A stretch of 64,000 bases of DNA from Gemmatimonadales bacterium (GCA_036493755.1 DASXPG010000028.1:138-64137); one strand, 5' to 3'. Counted from the first letter of the stretch, positions 1,262-63,109 are shown. Notes: generated from the sequence alone by a model not told the origin. Numbers and translations: made by a program.

Positions 1262-1272
1262 GAGCGTTGGCC

Positions 1273-1307
1273 GTTAACTGTTGACCGTTAACGGTTGACG
1301 GTGACCG
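1273..1307. repeat. GTTGACS-type heptad repeat element (5 tandem 7-bp units)
   Basis: Reads gttaact|gttgacc|gttaacg|gttgacg|gtgaccg directly after the groEL stop. The same heptad architecture recurs at 33713, 37679 (reverse orientation) and 63068. Confidence 0.7.
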
Positions 1308-2154: not shown

Positions 2155-4419
2155 GTGACCGAACCATCGGCTTCTCCCGGTCCCGCCCCTTCCGCACCTC
2201 CCGGGGCGGCTGGCGGTGCGCGCGCGAGTGAGAAGCGTGCGACACTGCCGCGTGAGCTGGCCGATTTCCTGATCGAATTCTCGATCGCGCTCCACAAGCA
2301 CGCGATGTACCCCGGCGGTCACCCGACGCTGGGCCCGGCGGCCGAGGGGGTGGCGCGGCGCCTCGACAGCCTGCTGCTCGAGCGCGGGACGCTGTCCCTG
2401 GGCGTCGCCCGCGAGCAGCTGATCATCGAAGGTGTCGCCACCGATCCGCGCAACCCGGTGCTGAAGGACCTCGCGGACCGGCTCCATCGCCACCACCTCG
2501 GCGCGATTTCCTTCCATCGCGGCGTGTCGCCGTTCGAGCTCGAGGAGGCGCTGAAGGTCGTCGCCACCGATGCCGACCGCGGCGCCGACCCGATCGGCCT
2601 GCGCCAGTCGGGCAACATTCCCAGCTGGAAACACCTCCAGCTCTTCCCGCTGACCTTCGACCGGCTGGAGCTGGTCGGCGGGCCGGATGAGGATGACGGT
2701 GGCGGTTCCACGGTCACCGGTGGGCGCGGCGCGCAGCTGTGGGTCGGGTTGGCGCGCGCGGCGCTCGCCTCCGAAGACGTGGGCAGCGGCACCGCGAGGA
2801 AGCCCAGGGCGCAGGTCAAGCCGCCCGAGCCCCACGCCTTCCGCGCCAACCTGGGGCCCGCGGAGCCGATGAGCGACGCCGAAATCGCGGAGACGTTAGG
2901 CGCCGCCGCCGGGCCCGATGAAGTCGAAGCCGGCGCCGCCGAGCCCGCGGCGGTGGCGCGGGCGATCGAACAGCACGAGCGCGGCACGGCCTACGACCAG
3001 GTGATCGTGGGCTACCTGCTCCAGAGCGCCGAGCTGCTCAAGCAGGGCGGCCAGGGCTCGCTCGCCCTCAAGAAGAAGATGAGCAAGCTGATTTCGTCGC
3101 TCGACGACAACACCCGGTCGCGGCTGCTGGAAATGTCCGGCGACAAGCGCCAGCGCAACCGTTTCATTCTCGACGCCTCGCAGGGAATGTCGATGGACGC
3201 CGTGGTGGACCTGGTCAACGCCGCGGCGTCGGGAAACGGTTCGCCCATCTCTTCGTCCATGCTGCGCATGCTGCAGAAGCTCAGCCTGCACGCCGAGCGC
3301 GGCTCGGCGCCCCGGCGCACCATGGCCGAATCGGCGATCCGCGAGCAGATCTCCGAGCTGGTGCAAGGCTGGGAGCTGGCCGACCCGAACCCCGACGGCT
3401 ATTCGGCGGCGCTCCAGAAGATGTCGATGTCGGCGCCGACGCTGGTGGTCGCCGAAGAAGCGGCGTTCGCTCCCGAGGCCGAGCGGATGGTGAAGATGTC
3501 GATCGAGACCGGCGGCGTGGGCGACCCGCTGGAGCGCGCCATTGGTGACATCGTGGCGTCGGGGAAGATTCTGAACCTGGTGGCGATGCTCGATGGCGCG
3601 CCGAGGCAGAATGACGCGACGAAGCGCATTCGCGACCGTGTCGAGGATCCCTCGATGATGCGCGCCGCCCTGGCGGCGCAGCCGGTGGACTTCGACCTGG
3701 TGGACCAGCTGATCTCGGCCAACCGCGACCGTGCCACCGGGCCGATGCTCGATGTGCTGACCGAATCGGAGTCGCGAACCCTGCGCCGCGCCCTGATCGA
3801 TCGCCTCATCCGCATGCCCGATCTGGTGCGTCCGCACCTCGCGTCCCGGGTGAACGACGAGCGCTGGTACGTCACCCGCAACATTCTCTTCATCGCCGCC
3901 GAGCTGCCGGGGACGCCGCTCGCCGTCGACGCCACCCCTTTCCGCCAGCACCCCGACTGGCGGGTCCGCCGCGAGGCGCTGCGGGTCCTCTTCCGCCACG
4001 CCGAGGAGCGAACCCGGGCCATCTGCACCGCGCTCTCCGACGAAGACCCGCGGCTCAAGCAGCTCGCCCTCAATGCCGTGGTCGAGGGCGGTTGCCCCGA
4101 GCCGGCGGTGCCGATCCTGGTGTCGATCGCCTCCGACGAAGAGAACGACAGCGAGCTGCGCGTCGGCGCCATCAAGGCCCTGGGCACCAAGGGCGGAACG
4201 TTGCCCCTCGAAGCGCTGCTCAAGCTGACCGAGATCAAGCGGCGGAGCATCATCGACGTCGTCTCCGGCAGCAGCGCCAGCGCCGAATTTCTCGCCGCCA
4301 TCACCGCGTTAGGCGCCTTGCGCGCCGAGACGCGGGCCCGCGAGCGGCTCGACCTCATTGCCAGAGGCCGGGATCCCGGTGCGGCCAGGGCCGCCGCCGA
4401 CGCCTTGAGGGGTGCATGA
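2155..4419 (+). CDS. Large regulatory-type protein with an N-terminal YPxGHP module (shared with the downstream HD-GYP protein) and C-terminal HEAT-like repeats
   Basis: 754-aa ORF with a GTG start. The N-terminus (FLIEFSIALHKHAMYPGGHPTLG...) aligns by eye with the N-terminus of the next gene. The C-terminus has HEAT-like helices (DPRLKQLALNAVVEGGCPEPAVPILVSIASDEENDSELRVGAIKALG). The stop overlaps the next start (ATGA at 4416-4419). Confidence 0.65.
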   Translation: MTEPSASPGPAPSAPPGAAGGARASEKRATLPRELADFLIEFSIALHKHAMYPGGHPTLGPAAEGVARRLDSLLLERGTLSLGVAREQLIIEGVATDPRNPVLKDLADRLHRHHLGAISFHRGVSPFELEEALKVVATDADRGADPIGLRQSGNIPSWKHLQLFPLTFDRLELVGGPDEDDGGGSTVTGGRGAQLWVGLARAALASEDVGSGTARKPRAQVKPPEPHAFRANLGPAEPMSDAEIAETLGAAAGPDEVEAGAAEPAAVARAIEQHERGTAYDQVIVGYLLQSAELLKQGGQGSLALKKKMSKLISSLDDNTRSRLLEMSGDKRQRNRFILDASQGMSMDAVVDLVNAAASGNGSPISSSMLRMLQKLSLHAERGSAPRRTMAESAIREQISELVQGWELADPNPDGYSAALQKMSMSAPTLVVAEEAAFAPEAERMVKMSIETGGVGDPLERAIGDIVASGKILNLVAMLDGAPRQNDATKRIRDRVEDPSMMRAALAAQPVDFDLVDQLISANRDRATGPMLDVLTESESRTLRRALIDRLIRMPDLVRPHLASRVNDERWYVTRNILFIAAELPGTPLAVDATPFRQHPDWRVRREALRVLFRHAEERTRAICTALSDEDPRLKQLALNAVVEGGCPEPAVPILVSIASDEENDSELRVGAIKALGTKGGTLPLEALLKLTEIKRRSIIDVVSGSSASAEFLAAITALGALRAETRARERLDLIARGRDPGAARAAADALRGA

Positions 4420-5678
4420 CCGGCACCGAGCTGGCTCCCCTCGCGGTTCGATTCCTCAACGCCTTCGCCCGCGCCCTCTCGACCATGACGCTCTATCCCG
4501 AGGGCCATCCGGAGCGGGAAGGGATCATCGATACCGCGCACGAAGCGCTGCGCGCCGTCCAGGCCATGGATCGGCGGGCCTCCTTCTCCTTCCTCGGCGA
4601 CGAGGTCATTCTCGGCCAGCGCCCCATCCGAGAATTGCGCGGCTGGGACTGGAGCCAGCGGCTGGCGTCGGCGGGGATTCAGCGGCTCGAGTTCGAGACC
4701 GAGGTGACGCGCGAGGAATTCGAAAGCTTCATGAGCGAGGCGCTCGCGCGTCTGACCCTGTCGGCGCTCCAGCAGCAGGCGCCCGCCAGCAGCGCCGGCA
4801 TCTCGGGTCCCATCAAGTTCGGCTCGGTCGGCATCCGCGAGCAGTACAGCGACGAAGAGATCGCCACCGCGAGCATCGATCTGTCGCTCGACGAGGAAGC
4901 GGAGACGGTGCGCTGGCTCCACGACGAGGCCCAGCGGGACAATGGCCTGCAGCTGGCCGAGGTCAGCGCCGTGGTCAGCTCGCTGGCGTCCGCGATGCAC
5001 GGCGACCAGGCCATCGTGCTGCCGCTGCTCCAGATTCGCCGCTACGACCAGTACACCACCACGCACTCGCTGAACGTCTGCGTCCTGGCGATGGGTCTCG
5101 CCGAATGGATGGGCCTGGGCGCGCGCGACGTGCGCGCCTTCGGCACCTCGGGGCTGCTCCACGACATCGGCAAGATCCGGATTCCCAGCGAAATCCTGAA
5201 CAAGGCGGGCCGCCTAGAGCCTAACGAGCGCCAGATCATGAACGCCCACCCAGTCGAGGGGGCGAAGATCATCATCAGCTCGGCGGAGAAGCTCGACCTG
5301 GCGGCGGTGGTGGCCTACGAGCACCACATCATGCTCAACGGCGGCGGTTATCCGACCTTCGATTATCCCCGCGATTGCCACCAGGCCAGCAAGCTGGTAC
5401 ACGTCTGCGATGTGTACGACGCGTTGCGCACCAACCGTCCCTACCGCGCCGCCTGGCATTCATCGAAGGTGCTGGCCTATCTCGAAGAGCGGTCGGGAAC
5501 CGAGTTCGATCCCGACGCCACCCGCGCCTTCGTCAAGATGATGGGGGAATGGGAACCAAAGGTGGCGTCACTGGCGGGCGAAGAAAGTGCACCCGATTCT
5601 ATCCTTGTCTCTCCTGTCTCTCCTGTCTCTCCCGTCTCTCCTGCCTCTCCTGTTTCTCCCGTCTCACCTCAGGGGTAG
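4416..5678 (+). CDS. HD-GYP domain protein (putative cyclic-di-GMP phosphodiesterase) with a (V/A)SP repeat tail
   Basis: HD motif: HSLNVCVLAMGLA...GLLHDIGKIRIP. HHxxxxGxGYP motif: AYEHHIMLNGGGYP. Also VCDVYDALRTNRPYR. I chose the ATG at 4416 (ATGA overlap) rather than the TTG at 4092 given in the ORF track. Confidence 0.85.
   Translation: MTGTELAPLAVRFLNAFARALSTMTLYPEGHPEREGIIDTAHEALRAVQAMDRRASFSFLGDEVILGQRPIRELRGWDWSQRLASAGIQRLEFETEVTREEFESFMSEALARLTLSALQQQAPASSAGISGPIKFGSVGIREQYSDEEIATASIDLSLDEEAETVRWLHDEAQRDNGLQLAEVSAVVSSLASAMHGDQAIVLPLLQIRRYDQYTTTHSLNVCVLAMGLAEWMGLGARDVRAFGTSGLLHDIGKIRIPSEILNKAGRLEPNERQIMNAHPVEGAKIIISSAEKLDLAAVVAYEHHIMLNGGGYPTFDYPRDCHQASKLVHVCDVYDALRTNRPYRAAWHSSKVLAYLEERSGTEFDPDATRAFVKMMGEWEPKVASLAGEESAPDSILVSPVSPVSPVSPASPVSPVSPQG
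5607..5669 (+). repeat. 7 x 9-bp tandem repeat (GTCTCTCCT) inside the 3' end of the HD-GYP gene
   Basis: Reads gtctctcct gtctctcct gtctctccc gtctctcct gcctctcct gtttctccc gtctcacct and encodes VSPVSPVSPVSPASPVSPVSP. Confidence 0.9.
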
Positions 5679-12620: not shown

Positions 12621-14839
12621 GCGTCGCGCTCAACGAGCCGCAGCGCGCCGCGGTCGAGCACGTCAGCGGGCCGATCCTGGTGCTGGCCGGCGCCGGCTCG
12701 GGAAAGACGCGGGTGCTGACGGCACGCATCGCGCGGCTGATCACCGAGCATGGTGTGGATCCGCGCCGCGTCCTCGCGGTGACCTTCACCAACAAGGCCG
12801 CGGCCGAGATGAAGCATCGCGTCGGCACGCTGCTGGGAAAGGAGCCGTCGGGGCTGTGGATCGGCACTTTCCATTCGATCTGCGGCCGGCTGCTGCGCCG
12901 CGAGGCCCCACACCTCGGCTTCACCCGATCCTTCACGATCTACGACCAGGACGACTCGGAGGCGCTGGTGCGCCGCGTGGTGGACGACCTCGGCCTGCCG
13001 CCCAAGCTGTACACCGCGCGCAGCATGCAGCACGAGATTTCGCGGGCCAAGAATGCGATGCAGACGCCGGAGCAGTACGCCGCCGATTCGTACGACCCGT
13101 ATCACGCCAACATCGCGCGGGTCTACGGCGAGACGGTCAAGGCGCTGCGCCGGGCCAACGCCATGGACTTCGACGATCTGCTGCTGCATCCGCTCGAGCT
13201 CTTCACCAATCATCCCGAGCGGCTGGCGGAGTACCGGGCGCGCTTCCAGTTCATCCTGGTCGATGAGTACCAGGACACCAACCGCGCCCAGTACAAGCTG
13301 CTCCAGATGCTGGCCGGCGAGCGCGCCAACATTTTCGTGGTCGGCGACGACGACCAGTCCATCTATGGATGGCGCGGGGCCGATCTGCGGAACATCCTGG
13401 AATTCCAGAAGGATTTTTCCGGCGCGACCCTGGTGCGGCTCGAGGAGAATTACCGTTCCACGCGGCCGATCCTCGAGGTGGCCAACAGCGTCATCGCCGC
13501 CAATCGCGGCCGCATCGGCAAGACGTTGCACACCCGGCGGCCGGGTGGCGAGCGCGTCACCGTGGTGCGCGCCGCCGACGAGCGCGACGAAGCCGAGTGG
13601 CTGGTGCGCGAGTTCGGCCAGCGGGTCCGCACCGGCGACCTCCAGTACGAGGATATCGCCGTCCTGGTCCGCACCAACGCGCAGACCCGGGCCTTCGAGG
13701 AAGAGCTGCGCCGCAACGGCATACCGTATCGGGTGGTGGGCGCGGTCAGTTTCTACGAGCGCCGCGAAGTGAAGGACCTGATGGCGTATCTGCGGCTCAT
13801 CGTCAATCGCGATGACGACGAGGCCTTCAACCGGGCGGTGTCGGTGCCGCGCCGCGGCATCGGCGAGACCAGTCTCGTGGCGTTAGGCGCCGCGGCGAAG
13901 CAGTGGTCGTGGTCGATGCACAAGGCGGCGTCGGCGGCGGGACGGGTCAGCGACCTGAAGCCGAGGGCGCGTGAAGCGCTGATCCAGTTCGCCGCCGACA
14001 TCGACGCGATCGGCGCCGAGCTGGGCGCGCTGCAGCCATCGGAGGCGCTGCGCGGCATCATCCAGCGGCTGAGTTACGACAAGTACCTGCTGGAAGAAGA
14101 CGAGACCGGTCCGGAGCGGGTCGAAAACGTGAACGAGCTGGTGAACGCCGCGGCCGCCTGGTCGGAGGAGTGGGGCGTGCCCGCCGCCGACGAAGAGGGG
14201 ACGCCGCTGGAGCGTTTCGTGGCGCAGGCCGCGCTCACCTCGCGAGCCGAGGTTGGCGGCGACAAGCGGGGCCTCACGTTGATGACGCTGCACGCGGCCA
14301 AGGGGCTCGAGTTCAACCTCGTCGCCGTCGCCGGAATGGAAGAGGGACTTTTCCCGTTGTCGCGCGCCGAATCGCAGGAAGACATCGAGGAGGAGCGGCG
14401 CCTGGCGTACGTCGGCATCACCCGGGCGCGAGACAAGTTGTTTCTCTCCTACGCCGTCGCCCGGCGGCGCACCGGTCAGCTCTTGCCGGCATTTCCGTCG
14501 CGGTTCCTCGCCGACGTCCCGCCGTCGCTGGTGGAGGATCGCGTGACGCGGCCGTCGTGGGGCATGGCCCGTGAGCCGCGCCGCCAGCCGGTGGTACGCC
14601 GCGCCGCGCCGATGGCACTGGGGAGCGACATCGAGGACGCCTATCCCGACGTGAACGACGACACGCCGCTGTTCGTGAAAGGGGAGCGGGTGAAGCATCG
14701 CCGCTTCGGATCGGGCACGATCGAGTCGGTGGCCGGCCGCGGACGCGATCTCAAGGTCGCCGTGACCTTCGACGATGATACCGTGGGCCTCAAGCAGCTG
14801 CTGGCTGTCTATGCCGGCCTGGAAAGGGAGATCGAATGA
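12617..14839 (+). CDS. uvrD: ATP-dependent DNA helicase, UvrD/PcrA family
   Basis: Walker A motif LAGAGSGKTRVLT, motif II VDEYQDTN, and VGDDDQSIYGWRGA. GTG start in a GTGA overlap with the kinase stop. Confidence 0.93.
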   Translation: MSVALNEPQRAAVEHVSGPILVLAGAGSGKTRVLTARIARLITEHGVDPRRVLAVTFTNKAAAEMKHRVGTLLGKEPSGLWIGTFHSICGRLLRREAPHLGFTRSFTIYDQDDSEALVRRVVDDLGLPPKLYTARSMQHEISRAKNAMQTPEQYAADSYDPYHANIARVYGETVKALRRANAMDFDDLLLHPLELFTNHPERLAEYRARFQFILVDEYQDTNRAQYKLLQMLAGERANIFVVGDDDQSIYGWRGADLRNILEFQKDFSGATLVRLEENYRSTRPILEVANSVIAANRGRIGKTLHTRRPGGERVTVVRAADERDEAEWLVREFGQRVRTGDLQYEDIAVLVRTNAQTRAFEEELRRNGIPYRVVGAVSFYERREVKDLMAYLRLIVNRDDDEAFNRAVSVPRRGIGETSLVALGAAAKQWSWSMHKAASAAGRVSDLKPRAREALIQFAADIDAIGAELGALQPSEALRGIIQRLSYDKYLLEEDETGPERVENVNELVNAAAAWSEEWGVPAADEEGTPLERFVAQAALTSRAEVGGDKRGLTLMTLHAAKGLEFNLVAVAGMEEGLFPLSRAESQEDIEEERRLAYVGITRARDKLFLSYAVARRRTGQLLPAFPSRFLADVPPSLVEDRVTRPSWGMAREPRRQPVVRRAAPMALGSDIEDAYPDVNDDTPLFVKGERVKHRRFGSGTIESVAGRGRDLKVAVTFDDDTVGLKQLLAVYAGLEREIE

Positions 14840-14875
14840 CGACGCACGACATACGACGCACGACGCACGACCTTC
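14838..14875 (+). repeat. Tandem heptamer repeat (GACGCAC-type, about 5 units) in the uvrD-gatC spacer
   Basis: Reads gac|gacgcac|gacatac|gacgcac|gacgcac|gaccttc and fills almost the entire spacer between the uvrD stop (14837-14839) and the gatC ATG (14877). Confidence 0.85.
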
Positions 14876-32615: not shown

Positions 32616-33088
32616 AACATCGCCGCGCCGGCCCGCCCGGCCGCCGTCCCCGCCGCGTCGCCGAGCAGGTGCGCCAGGTGGTGACGACGTTTCTCCAGGA
32701 AGAAGCGCGCGATCCGCGCATCGGCCTTGTGACCGTGACCAATGTCGAGATCTCCGGCGACCTCCAGCATGCCACGGTGCAATACGTGGTACACGGCGGT
32801 TCCGAGCAGCAGGCCCAGACCGAAGAGGGTCTCGCCGCGGCGGCGGCCGCGGTGCGCCGGCGTATCGGCGCCGAGATGGCGCTGCGCGTCGTCCCCGAGG
32901 TGGTGTTCGTCCTCGACAAGGGGACCGAGCACGCGGCGCATATTGCGCGGTTGCTCGCCGGGATACCAAAGACAGAAAGTGACGGAAGTGACGGAAGTGA
33001 CGGAAGTGACGGAAGTGACCGAAGTGACGGAAGTGACGGAGGTGACGGAGGTGACGGAGGTGATGCGGGAGAGCTGAAGTCTGATTGA
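32612..33088 (+). CDS. rbfA: Ribosome-binding factor A with a (S/G)DG repeat tail
   Basis: RVAEQVRQVVTTFLQEEARDPRIGLVTVTNVEISGDLQHATV is the RbfA core. ATGA overlap with DUF503. The C-terminus is ESDGSDGSDGSDGSDRSDGSDGGDGGDGGDAGE. Confidence 0.92.
   Translation: MKHRRAGPPGRRPRRVAEQVRQVVTTFLQEEARDPRIGLVTVTNVEISGDLQHATVQYVVHGGSEQQAQTEEGLAAAAAAVRRRIGAEMALRVVPEVVFVLDKGTEHAAHIARLLAGIPKTESDGSDGSDGSDGSDRSDGSDGGDGGDGGDAGELKSD
32978..33067 (+). repeat. About 10 x 9-bp tandem repeat (AGTGACGGA) at the 3' end of rbfA
   Basis: Units agtgacgga x4, agtgaccga, agtgacgga x2, ggtgacgga x2, ggtgatgcg. Confidence 0.9.
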
Positions 33089-33137: not shown

Positions 33138-33956
33138 GTGGCCATGGTTCGCCATGCGCTGGGTGAAGGACGGGTCGGGCACGCGGGCACGCTCGATCCA
33201 CCGGCGACGGGATTGCTGGTGGTGCTCACGGGGCGCGCGACGCGGCTCGCCCAGTTTGTCTCGATGCTCCCCAAGCGCTACAGCGGCGTGGTCCGCTTCG
33301 GTACCGAGACGTCGACCGACGACGCAACCGGCGCAGTGGTCGGCGAGTCAGATGATTCCTGGCGCGGCCGGCTTCAGCCGGAACTCGATGCGGCGCTGCG
33401 CAATGTGCAGGGTCGCACCCGCCAGATGCCTCCGGCGGTCAGCGCCAAGAAAATCGGCGGCGAACGGGCGTATCGGCAGGTTCGGCGCGGCGAGAAGCCG
33501 GCCCTCGAGCCGGCGAGCGTCGTCATCGAGCGGCTGCGCTGCGAGTGGTTCGACCGCCAGAGCGGCGAAGTCCATGTCGACGTCGTCTGCTCGTCGGGGA
33601 CCTACGTGCGCGCCATCGCGCGCGACGTCGGCCGCGAGCTGGGGACGAAGGCGCATCTCGCGTCGCTGAGGCGGACGGAGATCGGGAGCTGGAAAGTCGA
33701 TGACAGTCTGCCGTTGACCGTCGACGGTCCACCGTTGACGGTTGACGGCAAACATTTCCGCCCCATGTCCGAAGCCGTCGCCCATCTTCCCGCCGTCCTG
33801 CTGCCGGCCGAGGAGGCGAAGCGGTTCACCCAGGGCCGGAAAATTCCTTCGCCGCTGCCCGATGGGCCCGTCGCGGTCTTCAGCGCCGCCGAGCTGCTCG
33901 GAGTCGCGAAGCAGTCCCTCGGGCTGCTGCACCCCGACGTCGTGCTGATCGGATGA
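33138..33956 (+). CDS. truB: tRNA pseudouridine(55) synthase TruB (coordinates from the first canonical start; the true start is probably 33081-33102)
   Basis: GHAGTLDPPATGLLVV catalytic motif. The conserved N-terminal GILLIDKPAGPTSHDIV is encoded in frame at 33090-33140, upstream of the first GTG/ATG and downstream of an in-frame TGA (33075). Only CTG, ATT or ATC codons are available there. The gene contains a 35-bp heptad-repeat insertion (LTVDGPPLTVDG). Confidence 0.9.
   Translation: MAMVRHALGEGRVGHAGTLDPPATGLLVVLTGRATRLAQFVSMLPKRYSGVVRFGTETSTDDATGAVVGESDDSWRGRLQPELDAALRNVQGRTRQMPPAVSAKKIGGERAYRQVRRGEKPALEPASVVIERLRCEWFDRQSGEVHVDVVCSSGTYVRAIARDVGRELGTKAHLASLRRTEIGSWKVDDSLPLTVDGPPLTVDGKHFRPMSEAVAHLPAVLLPAEEAKRFTQGRKIPSPLPDGPVAVFSAAELLGVAKQSLGLLHPDVVLIG
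33713..33747 (+). repeat. GTTGACS-type heptad repeat element inside the truB coding sequence
   Basis: Reads gttgacc|gtcgacg|gtccacc|gttgacg|gttgacg and translates in frame to LTVDGPPLTVDG. Confidence 0.8.
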
Positions 33957-36663: not shown

Positions 36664-37677
36664 ATGAGACGACTCTTCGCCAACGCTAACTACGACTTCA
36701 TCGGCCTGCGGCGCATCGCCTACCTGCTGACGGGGCTAATCATCATCCCCGGGATGCTGATGGTCCTGTTCAAGGGCCTCAACTACAGCATCGAGTTCAC
36801 CGGCGGGACGCTGGTGCAGGTCAAGGCCAGGACGCCGGCCATGACCGTCGGCGCGCTGCGTTCTGCGCTGGACAAAGTAGGCCTCAACGGCGCCCAGATC
36901 TCGCAGTTCGGCGGCAACGACGAATTCGTGATCCGCGCCCGCCTGGCTGCGTCATCCAGCACGATCGATGAGCACACGGCGGAGCGGACCCGGGCCCTCG
37001 TGGACTCGACCCTCACGAAGACCTTCGGCGCGAACACCTACACCGCGGGTCGCGGCGAAGCGGTGGGTCCCAAGGTCGGCGGTGAGCTGCGCCGGCTGGC
37101 CCTGCTCGCCATTCTCGTCTCTTTCGCGCTGACCATGGTGTACCTGGCCTTCCGCTTCGAGTGGCGCTTCGGCGTCGCGGCGACGCTGGCCACGGCCCAC
37201 GACATCCTGGCGACGCTCGCCTTCATCATGTACATGAGGCTCGAGGTGTCGCTGATCGTGGTCTCGGCGATCCTGACGGTGGTGGGTTATTCGCTCAACG
37301 ACACCATCATCATCTTCGACCGCACCCGCGAGAACCTGCACAAGTACAAGCGCCAGGATCTCGCCGGCATCCTCAACCGGTCGATCAATGAGACGCTGCC
37401 GCGCTCGATCCTGACCCACGGGACGGCGCTGGCCACCACGCTGGCGATGCTGATCTTCGCCGGCGAAGTGATCCGGCCCTTCGCCTGGGTGATGGCGTTC
37501 GGAATCTTCACCGGAACCTTCTCGTCGATCTACATCGCCTCGCCGATGCTGCTGCTCATCGAGCAGAAGTGGCCGGGGAAGGATGCCCGCGGCGTGAAGG
37601 CCCGGGTGATGCCCGCCGGCCCTCCGGCCGGGGGAATGCCGTCGGGACTTGGCATCCAGGTTCCGTCAGGACGATAG
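36664..37677 (+). CDS. secF: Protein translocase subunit SecF
   Basis: NYDFIGLRRIAYLLTGLIII...LNYSIEFTGGT plus the conserved GYSLNDTIIIFDRTREN motif. Confidence 0.93.
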   Translation: MRRLFANANYDFIGLRRIAYLLTGLIIIPGMLMVLFKGLNYSIEFTGGTLVQVKARTPAMTVGALRSALDKVGLNGAQISQFGGNDEFVIRARLAASSSTIDEHTAERTRALVDSTLTKTFGANTYTAGRGEAVGPKVGGELRRLALLAILVSFALTMVYLAFRFEWRFGVAATLATAHDILATLAFIMYMRLEVSLIVVSAILTVVGYSLNDTIIIFDRTRENLHKYKRQDLAGILNRSINETLPRSILTHGTALATTLAMLIFAGEVIRPFAWVMAFGIFTGTFSSIYIASPMLLLIEQKWPGKDARGVKARVMPAGPPAGGMPSGLGIQVPSGR

Positions 37678-37678
37678 G

Positions 37679-37716
37679 GTTAACGGTCCGTCAACCGTCA
37701 ACGGTTGACCGTCAAC
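37679..37716 (-). repeat. GTTGACS-type heptad repeat element filling the secF-tatD spacer
   Basis: The reverse complement reads gttgacg|gtcaacc|gttgacg|gttgacg|gaccgtt. The element lies between the secF stop (37677) and the tatD ATG (37718). Confidence 0.8.
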
Positions 37717-37717
37717 C

Positions 37718-59044: not shown

Positions 59045-59141
59045 GGGGGCGGATCGGGCCTGGTGGTCTGACCAGTCTTCAAAACTGGCTGGACTTCGCT
59101 CCGCGAAGTTTGGTGGGTTCGATTCCCACACGCTCCCGCCA
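59045..59141 (+). tRNA. selC: tRNA-Sec (anticodon UCA)
   Basis: Folded by hand, 97 nt. Acceptor GGGGGCG(G) pairs with (A)CGCUCCC, followed by G and an encoded CCA. The D stem is 6 bp (CGGGCC/GGUCUG) with a 4-nt loop UGGU. The anticodon stem CCAGU/ACUGG closes the loop CUUCAAA, giving anticodon UCA. The variable arm is long (GGACUUCGC...GCGAAGUUU). The T arm is GUGGG-UUCGAUU-CCCAC. The eighth acceptor pair would be a G-A mismatch. Confidence 0.8.
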
Positions 59142-63049: not shown

Positions 63050-63067
63050 TCGCCCCGACGGTCTGCT

Positions 63068-63109
63068 GTTGACTGTCGACCGTGAACAGTCGACTGTGTT
63101 TCGTGTCCA
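63068..63109 (+). repeat. GTTGACS-related heptad repeat element spanning the start of the lipid kinase gene
   Basis: Reads gttgact|gtcgacc|gtgaaca|gtcgact|gtgtttc|gtgtcca. It is more degenerate than the other three copies. Confidence 0.55.

Follow-up and report, generated by a model that had tools for sequence, protein, structure and literature searches.

The four heptad arrays carried by a 64,000-nucleotide stretch of Gemmatimonadales DNA, referred to here as the window, are true copies of a species-specific, hairpin-forming repeat family of about 70 members. These arrays are probably the gene-less arms, or miniatures, of a foldback family whose full-length form is a cassette encoding a PF05635 protein, and on this reading they would be insertional passengers, not regulators.

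The window is contig C28 of a Gemmatimonadales MAG, designated G000 (3.15 Mb in 228 contigs, 67% GC, 81% complete), and the closest named relatives of its TruB likewise belong to the Gemmatimonadales. Comparisons were made across 41 related genomes, seven of them of one genus, which are kin to one another and not independent samples. Genes were called with a crude codon-usage finder (2,792 genes, approximately 93% coding), and the counts of intergenic and coding copies given below are therefore approximate. A sequence-only reading of the window had described tandem heptads at four loci. All four arrays are present, each with a profile E-value of about 1e-6:

Copy 1, 1265-1307 (+): six heptads at 1266-1307, GTTGGCC GTTAACT GTTGACC GTTAACG GTTGACG GTGACCG; profile match 1265-1299 (+), E=1.2e-6.
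Copy 2, 33706-33753: head GTCTGCC, then GTTGACC GTCGACG GTCCACC GTTGACG GTTGAC, then GGCAAAC; profile match 33720-33754 (-), E=7.6e-7.
Copy 3, 37678-37717 (+): GGTTAAC GGTCC GTCAACC GTCAACG GTTGACC GTCAACC; profile match 37686-37717 (+), E=1.9e-6.
Copy 4, 63059-63102 (+): array at 63061-63102, with head GTCTGCT, then GTTGACT GTCGACC GTGAACA GTCGACT and a degenerate GTGTTTC; profile match 63059-63094 (+), E=1.7e-6.

The first copy lies in the groEL 3' UTR, beginning 4 nt past the stop codon (TAG 1259-1261), and its sense RNA folds at -23.7 kcal/mol (z=-3.9); as had been proposed, the groEL terminator is a separate structure, a hairpin at 1320-1341 downstream of the array. The second is a compact palindrome in the linker of truB (33138-33956) and forms a near-perfect 19-bp hairpin (-36.1 kcal/mol, z=-8.1). 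The elements had been said to encode nothing, which proved incorrect: the truB copy is read in frame, as PLTVDGPPLTVDGK, a reading confirmed by the Pfam domains of the protein (PF01509, PF09157 and PF16198) and by a linker whose length is hypervariable across homologs. The third copy occupies the entire 40-nt spacer between the secF stop codon (TAG 37675-37677) and the tatD ATG (37718), in which no Shine-Dalgarno (SD) motif was found. It does fill this spacer, as was claimed, but it is not simply in reverse orientation, R- and Y-spaced units being mixed within it. The fourth, located in the spacer before a lipid kinase gene, abuts the start of the gene instead of spanning it, because the array ends where the GTG start (63103) begins. 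None of the four window copies carries an ORF. A three-unit pattern, allowing at most one mismatch, matched the window 10 times and matched none of 100 shuffled sequences, and on the sense strand the single copies yielded more stable folds than shuffles, with z ranging from -2.1 to -8.1.

An Rfam scan returned no family overlapping the arrays and no rRNA within the window; a selenocysteine tRNA was located at 59045-59137 (+) (RF01852, 70.9 bits). Two 9-bp tandem repeats, at 5606-5669 (TGTCTCTCC x7) and 32977-33063 (AAGTGACGG x9.7), extend an HD-GYP protein and RbfA in frame as tails, according to the sequence-only reading. Their period is a multiple of three, and they thus differ in kind from the heptads.

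Genome-wide, GTYRAC hexamers are spaced at 7, 14 and 21 bp on 151, 104 and 59 occasions, respectively, against about five for other distances. Arrays of at least three units number 64 at period 7, while periods 5, 6, 8, 9, 10 and 11 gave 0, 2, 0, 2, 0 and 0, and a profile consisting of the head plus four units identified 69 distinct loci (E at most 0.01). Base frequencies, estimated without bias by masking one position per round, were G1.99, T2.95, C3.59 (T.34), G4.58 (A.39), A5.82 (G.15) and C6.98, with a spacer base that is C or G and more rarely T or A. The unit is therefore GTYRAC+N, a better description than the GTTGAC(C/G) first proposed, and its 7-bp period is strict. Variation within the unit consists almost wholly of transitions.

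Orienting the arrays by their spacers reveals a polar element. A conserved head, GYYTGCY (most often GTCTGCC), precedes some four GTYRAC-Y units, after which comes a degenerate final unit; the whole arm module measures roughly 35-40 nt. The number of units peaks sharply at four (44 of the 64 arrays, with 10 arrays of five units, eight of three and one each of six and seven). Two arms placed head-to-head constitute a hairpin of about 70 nt, and all 12 adjacent inverted couples are arranged in this manner, none being tail-to-tail, with the general form (R-GTYRAC)n GGCAG...CTGCC (GTYRAC-Y)n. The folding energies of the couples span -28 to -62 kcal/mol. The suggestion that the arrays are palindromic holds.

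Period 7 is the most frequent tandem-repeat period in G000 (183 arrays with at least three copies), and further dispersed heptamer families were found there, namely GACGCAC (x21), GGGGAAC (x18) and GGGAATC (x6). One of these is represented in the window:

(GACGCAC)n array, 14839-14871 (+): member of a second heptamer family of G000, from the tandem-repeat scan; 21 arrays genome-wide.

GTYRAC is thus one of several heptamer families in this genome. The GACGCAC, GGGGAAC and GGGAATC arrays also tend to have about four units and at times occur as inverted couples, and the GGGAATC unit is identical to the G-quadruplex repeat of Xanthomonas.

The description of the family as dispersed at gene boundaries holds. 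Of the 64 arrays, 31 are intergenic, nine lie at gene edges and 24 fall inside predicted genes. Among the 69 profile matches, 33 are intergenic and 12 are at gene edges, an over-representation outside genes given that about 93% of the genome is coding. The intragenic arrays, approximately 24, are in frame and contribute peptides such as GRRSTVDGRQ, PSTVNRQPST and LTVDG to genes that include truB, tgt and murG. Annotators should read short in-frame inserts of the type VDGRRST or PSTVNRQ, where housekeeping proteins contain them, as repeat modules instead of functional motifs.

PF05635 ('23S rRNA intervening-sequence protein', IVS-protein, Avd-like) is present in 7/7 genomes of the genus. G000 has a single such gene, and it resides between two copies of the repeat family:

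PF05635 gene, G000:C72:4386-4694: the sole member in G000; 102 aa, covering profile positions 1-93 of 106; Pfam E=4.7e-33.
Cassette, G000:C72:4274-4709 (436 bp): the full-length family member, with arms at 4274-4306 (-) and 4677-4709 (+), both family-profile matches.

Both arm matches had been recorded before the PF05635 gene was sought, and by our own rough estimate the chance expectation for this arrangement is about 1e-6. The arms can form a duplex of -44 kcal/mol, and the protein-coding genes on either side leave a 467-bp gap in which the cassette sits. Relative to its ortholog in the congener G004, the G000 gene is without the C-terminal helix (approximately 25 residues), its TAG stop lying inside the right-arm array, which suggests that a deletion joined ORF and arm. 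In G004 the orthologous cassette has remained intact, encoding a protein of 122 aa (74% identical) between GTCGACA/GTCGACT arms. G004 and G000 are the only genomes rich in GTYRAC arrays among the 41 related genomes; the G004 units are GTCGAC+A/T, its arrays are longer and those of G000 are more degenerate. This degeneracy, taken with the truncated PF05635 gene, indicates that the family may be decaying, or no longer active, in G000.

The arrangement is general within the genus. At every one of the 11 readable loci, the PF05635 gene has inverted arrays of 7-8-nt units on either side, some 80-120 nt before the ORF and 20-150 nt after it, the unit differing from paralog to paralog. Where tested, the arm units are those of dispersed families in the same genome (GCTGATG in G004, GTGGGACR in G005 and CTGGAAT in G001). 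TTCAGCY arrays also occur in G004, one of them about 125 nt from the PF05635 gene on contig C28 of that genome. PF05635 paralogs with unrelated arms are only 27-61% identical. No PF05635 gene with GACGCAC, GGGGAAC or GGGAATC arms was found in the 81%-complete G000 assembly. Outside the phylum of the host, a decayed PF05635-like gene of Microcoleus lies between (GTTGACA)n and (GTCAACA)n, and a cyanobacterial STRR-type unit is therefore tied to the same cassette layout.

We know of no catalytic activity for PF05635. The family is related to Avd, the accessory protein of DGRs (PMC10053308), and the G000 protein has a weak bAvd-like Pfam match and also matches PDB 2GSC, whose structure is a pentamer built of four-helix bundles. 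No reverse transcriptase (PF00078) that might act as a DGR-like partner was found in the 81%-complete G000 assembly, and a limited literature search returned no report linking PF05635 to dispersed heptamer repeats.

Sister species have repeat families of their own. G003 carries (TTCRRCT)n, with about 130 matches; a reversed-pattern control is invalid for this periodic unit, whose reversal is nearly the same pattern, and the contrast between genomes was used instead. The 8-mer GTGGGACR has 171 matches in G005 and 0-19 in other genomes, the second family of G004, (GCTGATG)n, has 64 matches and occurs in G004 only, and (CTGGAAT)n was found only in G001. Judged by these matches, each dispersed unit family appears mostly confined to one genome. 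Units of 8 nt (GACTTGGC, GTTGAAGC and GTGGGACR) occupy the same slots and cassette arms at loci of G001 and G005 (L126, L194 and L222), so the period is not strictly seven across the genus. The idea that the arrays are HincII-type (GTYRAC) restriction sites was discarded on account of the sister family TTCRRCT, which is not palindromic; a palindromic core is therefore not essential.

Comparison of orthologous sites provides one clean case of presence and absence. At C127:13338, a 37-nt module is inserted between a TAA stop codon and the start of the next gene (TAAG^TGGC), whereas at the empty site G004, G003 and G001 have one and the same sequence, TAAGTGGC; no target-site duplication was seen at this insertion. 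At other sites, a fixed slot holds an array in several species, made up of different units. The secF-tatD slot contains a GTCGAC-W couple in G004, degenerate GTCTACC heptads in G003 and (GACTTGGC)x3 in G001, with no array in G002 or G005. The truB linker of G004 holds a GTCGAC-W array at the corresponding position, and the groEL 3' UTR of that genome a different heptad array, (GGCAGCT)x4. No array was found in the kinase spacer of G004, G002 or G006, in which the upstream neighbourhood differs. Two slots 180 nt apart in murG hold GTCGACA/GTCGACC in G000, GCTGATG/ATCAGCC in G004 and GGCAGGC/GCCYGCC in G003, the two arms being complementary within each of the three species although the sequence changes. 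The loop slot of tgt also carries differing units across species, with length differences that are multiples of three. Ordinary transposition does not explain slots that hold unrelated units in sister species, and these count against the foldback reading.

Of the known systems, the ORF-bearing intervening sequences (IVS) of 23S rRNA from Coxiella, Leptospira, Xanthomonas and others resemble the cassette in being about 430 bp long, with a PF05635/S23p ORF between stem-forming inverted repeats, and in their sporadic distribution and suspected mobile-element origin. In Coxiella, heptamers adjoin the ORF: the S23p gene is preceded by three tandem copies of GACAGAT, a number that differs from strain to strain. 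The first of these repeats is the site of RNase III cleavage, and a mobile origin has been put forward for the element (PMC4990558). Unlike these elements, the present cassette is situated between protein-coding genes and not in helix 25 or 45 of 23S rRNA, its arms are whole arrays of 4-10 heptads, and it is accompanied by dozens of dispersed gene-less arms, a feature for which a limited literature search returned no report in IVS elements.

The likeness to STRR and REP elements pointed out by the sequence-only reading holds on both counts. Heptamer arrays of the GTCAAC-N/GTTGAC-N type abound in Microcoleus, Nostoc and Calothrix, and the head-to-head couples are like REP dimers. The published STRR3 unit, CAACAGT, is a rotation of GTCAACA. 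With the STRR and other long simple-sequence repeats (GGGAATC in Xanthomonas, GGGGAYT in Nostoc), the G000 family shares dispersed 7-nt tandem units, enrichment outside genes and a preference for four units. It differs in its polar head, its head-to-head couples and its protein-coding full-length form, and in its host, one of the Gemmatimonadales with 67% GC rather than a heterocystous cyanobacterium as in the original definition of STRR. For GGGAATC/GGGGAYT repeats, four units are preferred and positions near gene ends have been described (Rehm 2015, PMC4692102); the preference seen here does not stem from G-quadruplexes, because GTYRAC is not G-rich.

Akin to REP, BIME and REPIN elements, and especially the CGTC REPs, the family consists of short, high-copy palindromes with a species-specific consensus, mainly in head-to-head dimers and with some intragenic copies. 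The CGTC-tagged REPs likewise form head-to-head dimers without a dedicated transposase (Di Nocera 2013). The body of the present element is a tandem heptad array plus a GTCTGCY head, however, in place of one 20-40 bp stem-loop; it is without the GTAG tag, and the RAYT genes are flanked by other repeats. In its behaviour, the family also resembles RPEs and MITEs, which are small non-coding palindromes, in being found in frame within housekeeping genes (truB, tgt and murG here), and in the relation between a putative autonomous element and miniatures with shared ends. Unlike in MITEs, the one clean insertion has no target-site duplication. The putative autonomous partner has the same arms and encodes a four-helix-bundle protein with no known transposase activity.

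Under the foldback reading, some of the four window arrays would be single arms and others compact hairpins. The short copies would behave as miniature derivatives of the cassette that entered stop/start junctions, 3' UTRs and, without breaking the reading frame, tolerant protein loops, and would persist at fixed slots while the repeat unit turns over together with the arms of the resident cassette. The PF05635 protein may recognise its own arm repeats and help to spread or homogenise them and, by analogy with the 23S IVS elements, transcribed couples may form RNase III-type stems. The copies themselves would be selfish or neutral passengers and not regulators of groEL, truB, tatD or the kinase gene. 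Causality might also be reversed, with the cassette landing in, or being tolerated between, pre-existing arrays. Counting against the foldback reading, too, are the single clean insertion with no target-site duplication, a full-length member whose protein has no known catalytic activity, the negative search for a reverse transcriptase, the truncation of the G000 gene, the three other G000 heptamer families for which the 81%-complete assembly yielded no PF05635 cassette, and couples whose two arms resemble each other no more than random family members do.

One alternative, along the lines put forward for the TAACTGA heptamers of Beggiatoaceae, is that the arrays act in cis, a host factor binding the RNA or DNA and thereby controlling translation initiation of the downstream gene or the polarity of its operon. 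In 17 cases an array stops 0-15 nt short of a predicted start codon, 13 times in sense orientation, and an SD-like motif precedes not one of these 17 genes, compared with about 31% genome-wide (within 22 nt and with crude start calls); the tatD and kinase copies match this pre-start pattern. The same placement has been reported for TAACTGA repeats, which precede start codons in Beggiatoaceae, Cyanobacteria and Bacteroidota (MacGregor 2015, PMC4679880), and those of the marine Beggiatoaceae are similar also in comprising 2-6 heptamers in sense orientation, in place of an SD motif, and in their patchy distribution. Their unit is GATAACT rather than GTYRACN, though, and a third of the copies in G000 are intragenic and many are paired hairpins. 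Most family members are sited away from start codons, about a third of the copies being intragenic and some others belonging to 3' UTRs. In co-directional spacers, orientation relative to transcription is not significantly biased (approximately 11 against 7 by hand count). Where a short spacer is taken up by a 35-nt module, no SD would be expected. Furthermore, the same site holds unrelated units or no array in sister species, which is not how a conserved regulatory site would behave, and we consider cis-regulation unlikely. Another idea, that the arrays are sigma-70 -35 (TTGAC) promoter elements, was set aside, since the tatD copy has no well-placed -10 (by eye) and many units read GTCGAC or GTCAAC. 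Whatever their origin, the paired arrays could instead be kept by the host as RNA structures, either RNase III sites or REP/BIME-like stabilisers of 3' ends. The long stems of the couples, the stability of single window copies on the sense strand relative to shuffles and the persistent complementarity of the murG arms in three species all speak for this proposal, as does the excision by RNase III of the similarly arranged 23S IVS elements (PMC4990558). Against it, the folding of couples has no consistent strand preference relative to transcription, and co-variation between the two arms of a G000 couple does not exceed chance: by hand count, about 17% of units are identical against about 21% expected from random draws of the family, which gives no support for selected pairing of the arms. 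Complementarity between arms across species can also arise unselected; in quasipalindrome correction, template switching between inverted repeats restores complementarity without selection. Host-maintained RNA structure is accordingly rated as quite unlikely.

Local replication slippage, by which the arrays would be ordinary long simple-sequence repeats with neither mobility nor a partner protein, agrees with the predominance of period 7 in G000 and with heptamers being the commonest long simple-sequence repeat in prokaryotes (Mrazek 2007, as summarised in PMC4679880). It is also in keeping with within-unit variation that is almost all transitions and with units of an array changing in concert between species. 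It leaves unaccounted for the recurrence of one unit and one head at 69 loci, the 12:0 excess of head-to-head couples, the peak at four units, the insertion of a whole 37-nt module and the genome-specific match of dispersed units with PF05635 cassette arms; slippage is already disfavoured on these grounds, and we hold it to be very unlikely. Mobilisation as REP/REPIN elements by a RAYT (Y1 transposase) would suit the head-to-head dimers, the enrichment outside genes and the species-specific consensus, and PF01797 is restricted, within the genus, to G000 and G004, which are also its two carriers of GTYRAC arrays. However, the Y1_Tnp genes of G000 (C161 and C71) and G004 (C50) are flanked by other, low-copy palindromes, G003 and G005 are without PF01797 and have about 130-170 matches of their own units, and G009, which is 100% complete, carries arrays and is also without PF01797. 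RAYT mobilisation was consequently rejected as improbable in the extreme. The Y1 genes have their own palindromes (G000:C161:4281-4562, CCGTCGTTTACGACGG; G000:C71:6910-7170, GCGGGCTCTCAGCCCGC; L137 on G004:C50, CAGCGGCTGAGAGCCGCTG) in a layout that corresponds to a classical REPtron, unrelated to the heptads.

The foldback reading, in which the window arrays are miniatures of the PF05635 cassette, can be extended to a bolder proposal that we put forward only tentatively and think less likely to be right than wrong. PF05635 proteins may be the trans-acting part of an unrecognised class of element, in which each paralog would recognise its own 7-8-nt unit and install, copy or rewrite modules, each some four units long, at fixed slots, gene junctions and protein loops among them. 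If true, this would explain why the units in a slot differ between sister species and yet match the resident cassette, and it would also explain STRR and other heptamer families across bacterial phyla.

Catalogues of dispersed heptamer repeats go back to 1990 (STRR, long simple-sequence repeats, GGGAATC and TAACTGA) and, to our knowledge, neither an origin nor a partner was ever found for them. With PF05635, these long-puzzling bacterial repeats gain a candidate protein partner. The genus is a compact natural experiment, each of its seven genomes having a dominant 7-8-nt unit of its own, one or more PF05635 cassettes with that unit in the arms, and slots shared with the others in essential genes such as tgt, murG and truB, and what had been a descriptive puzzle is now open to direct tests.
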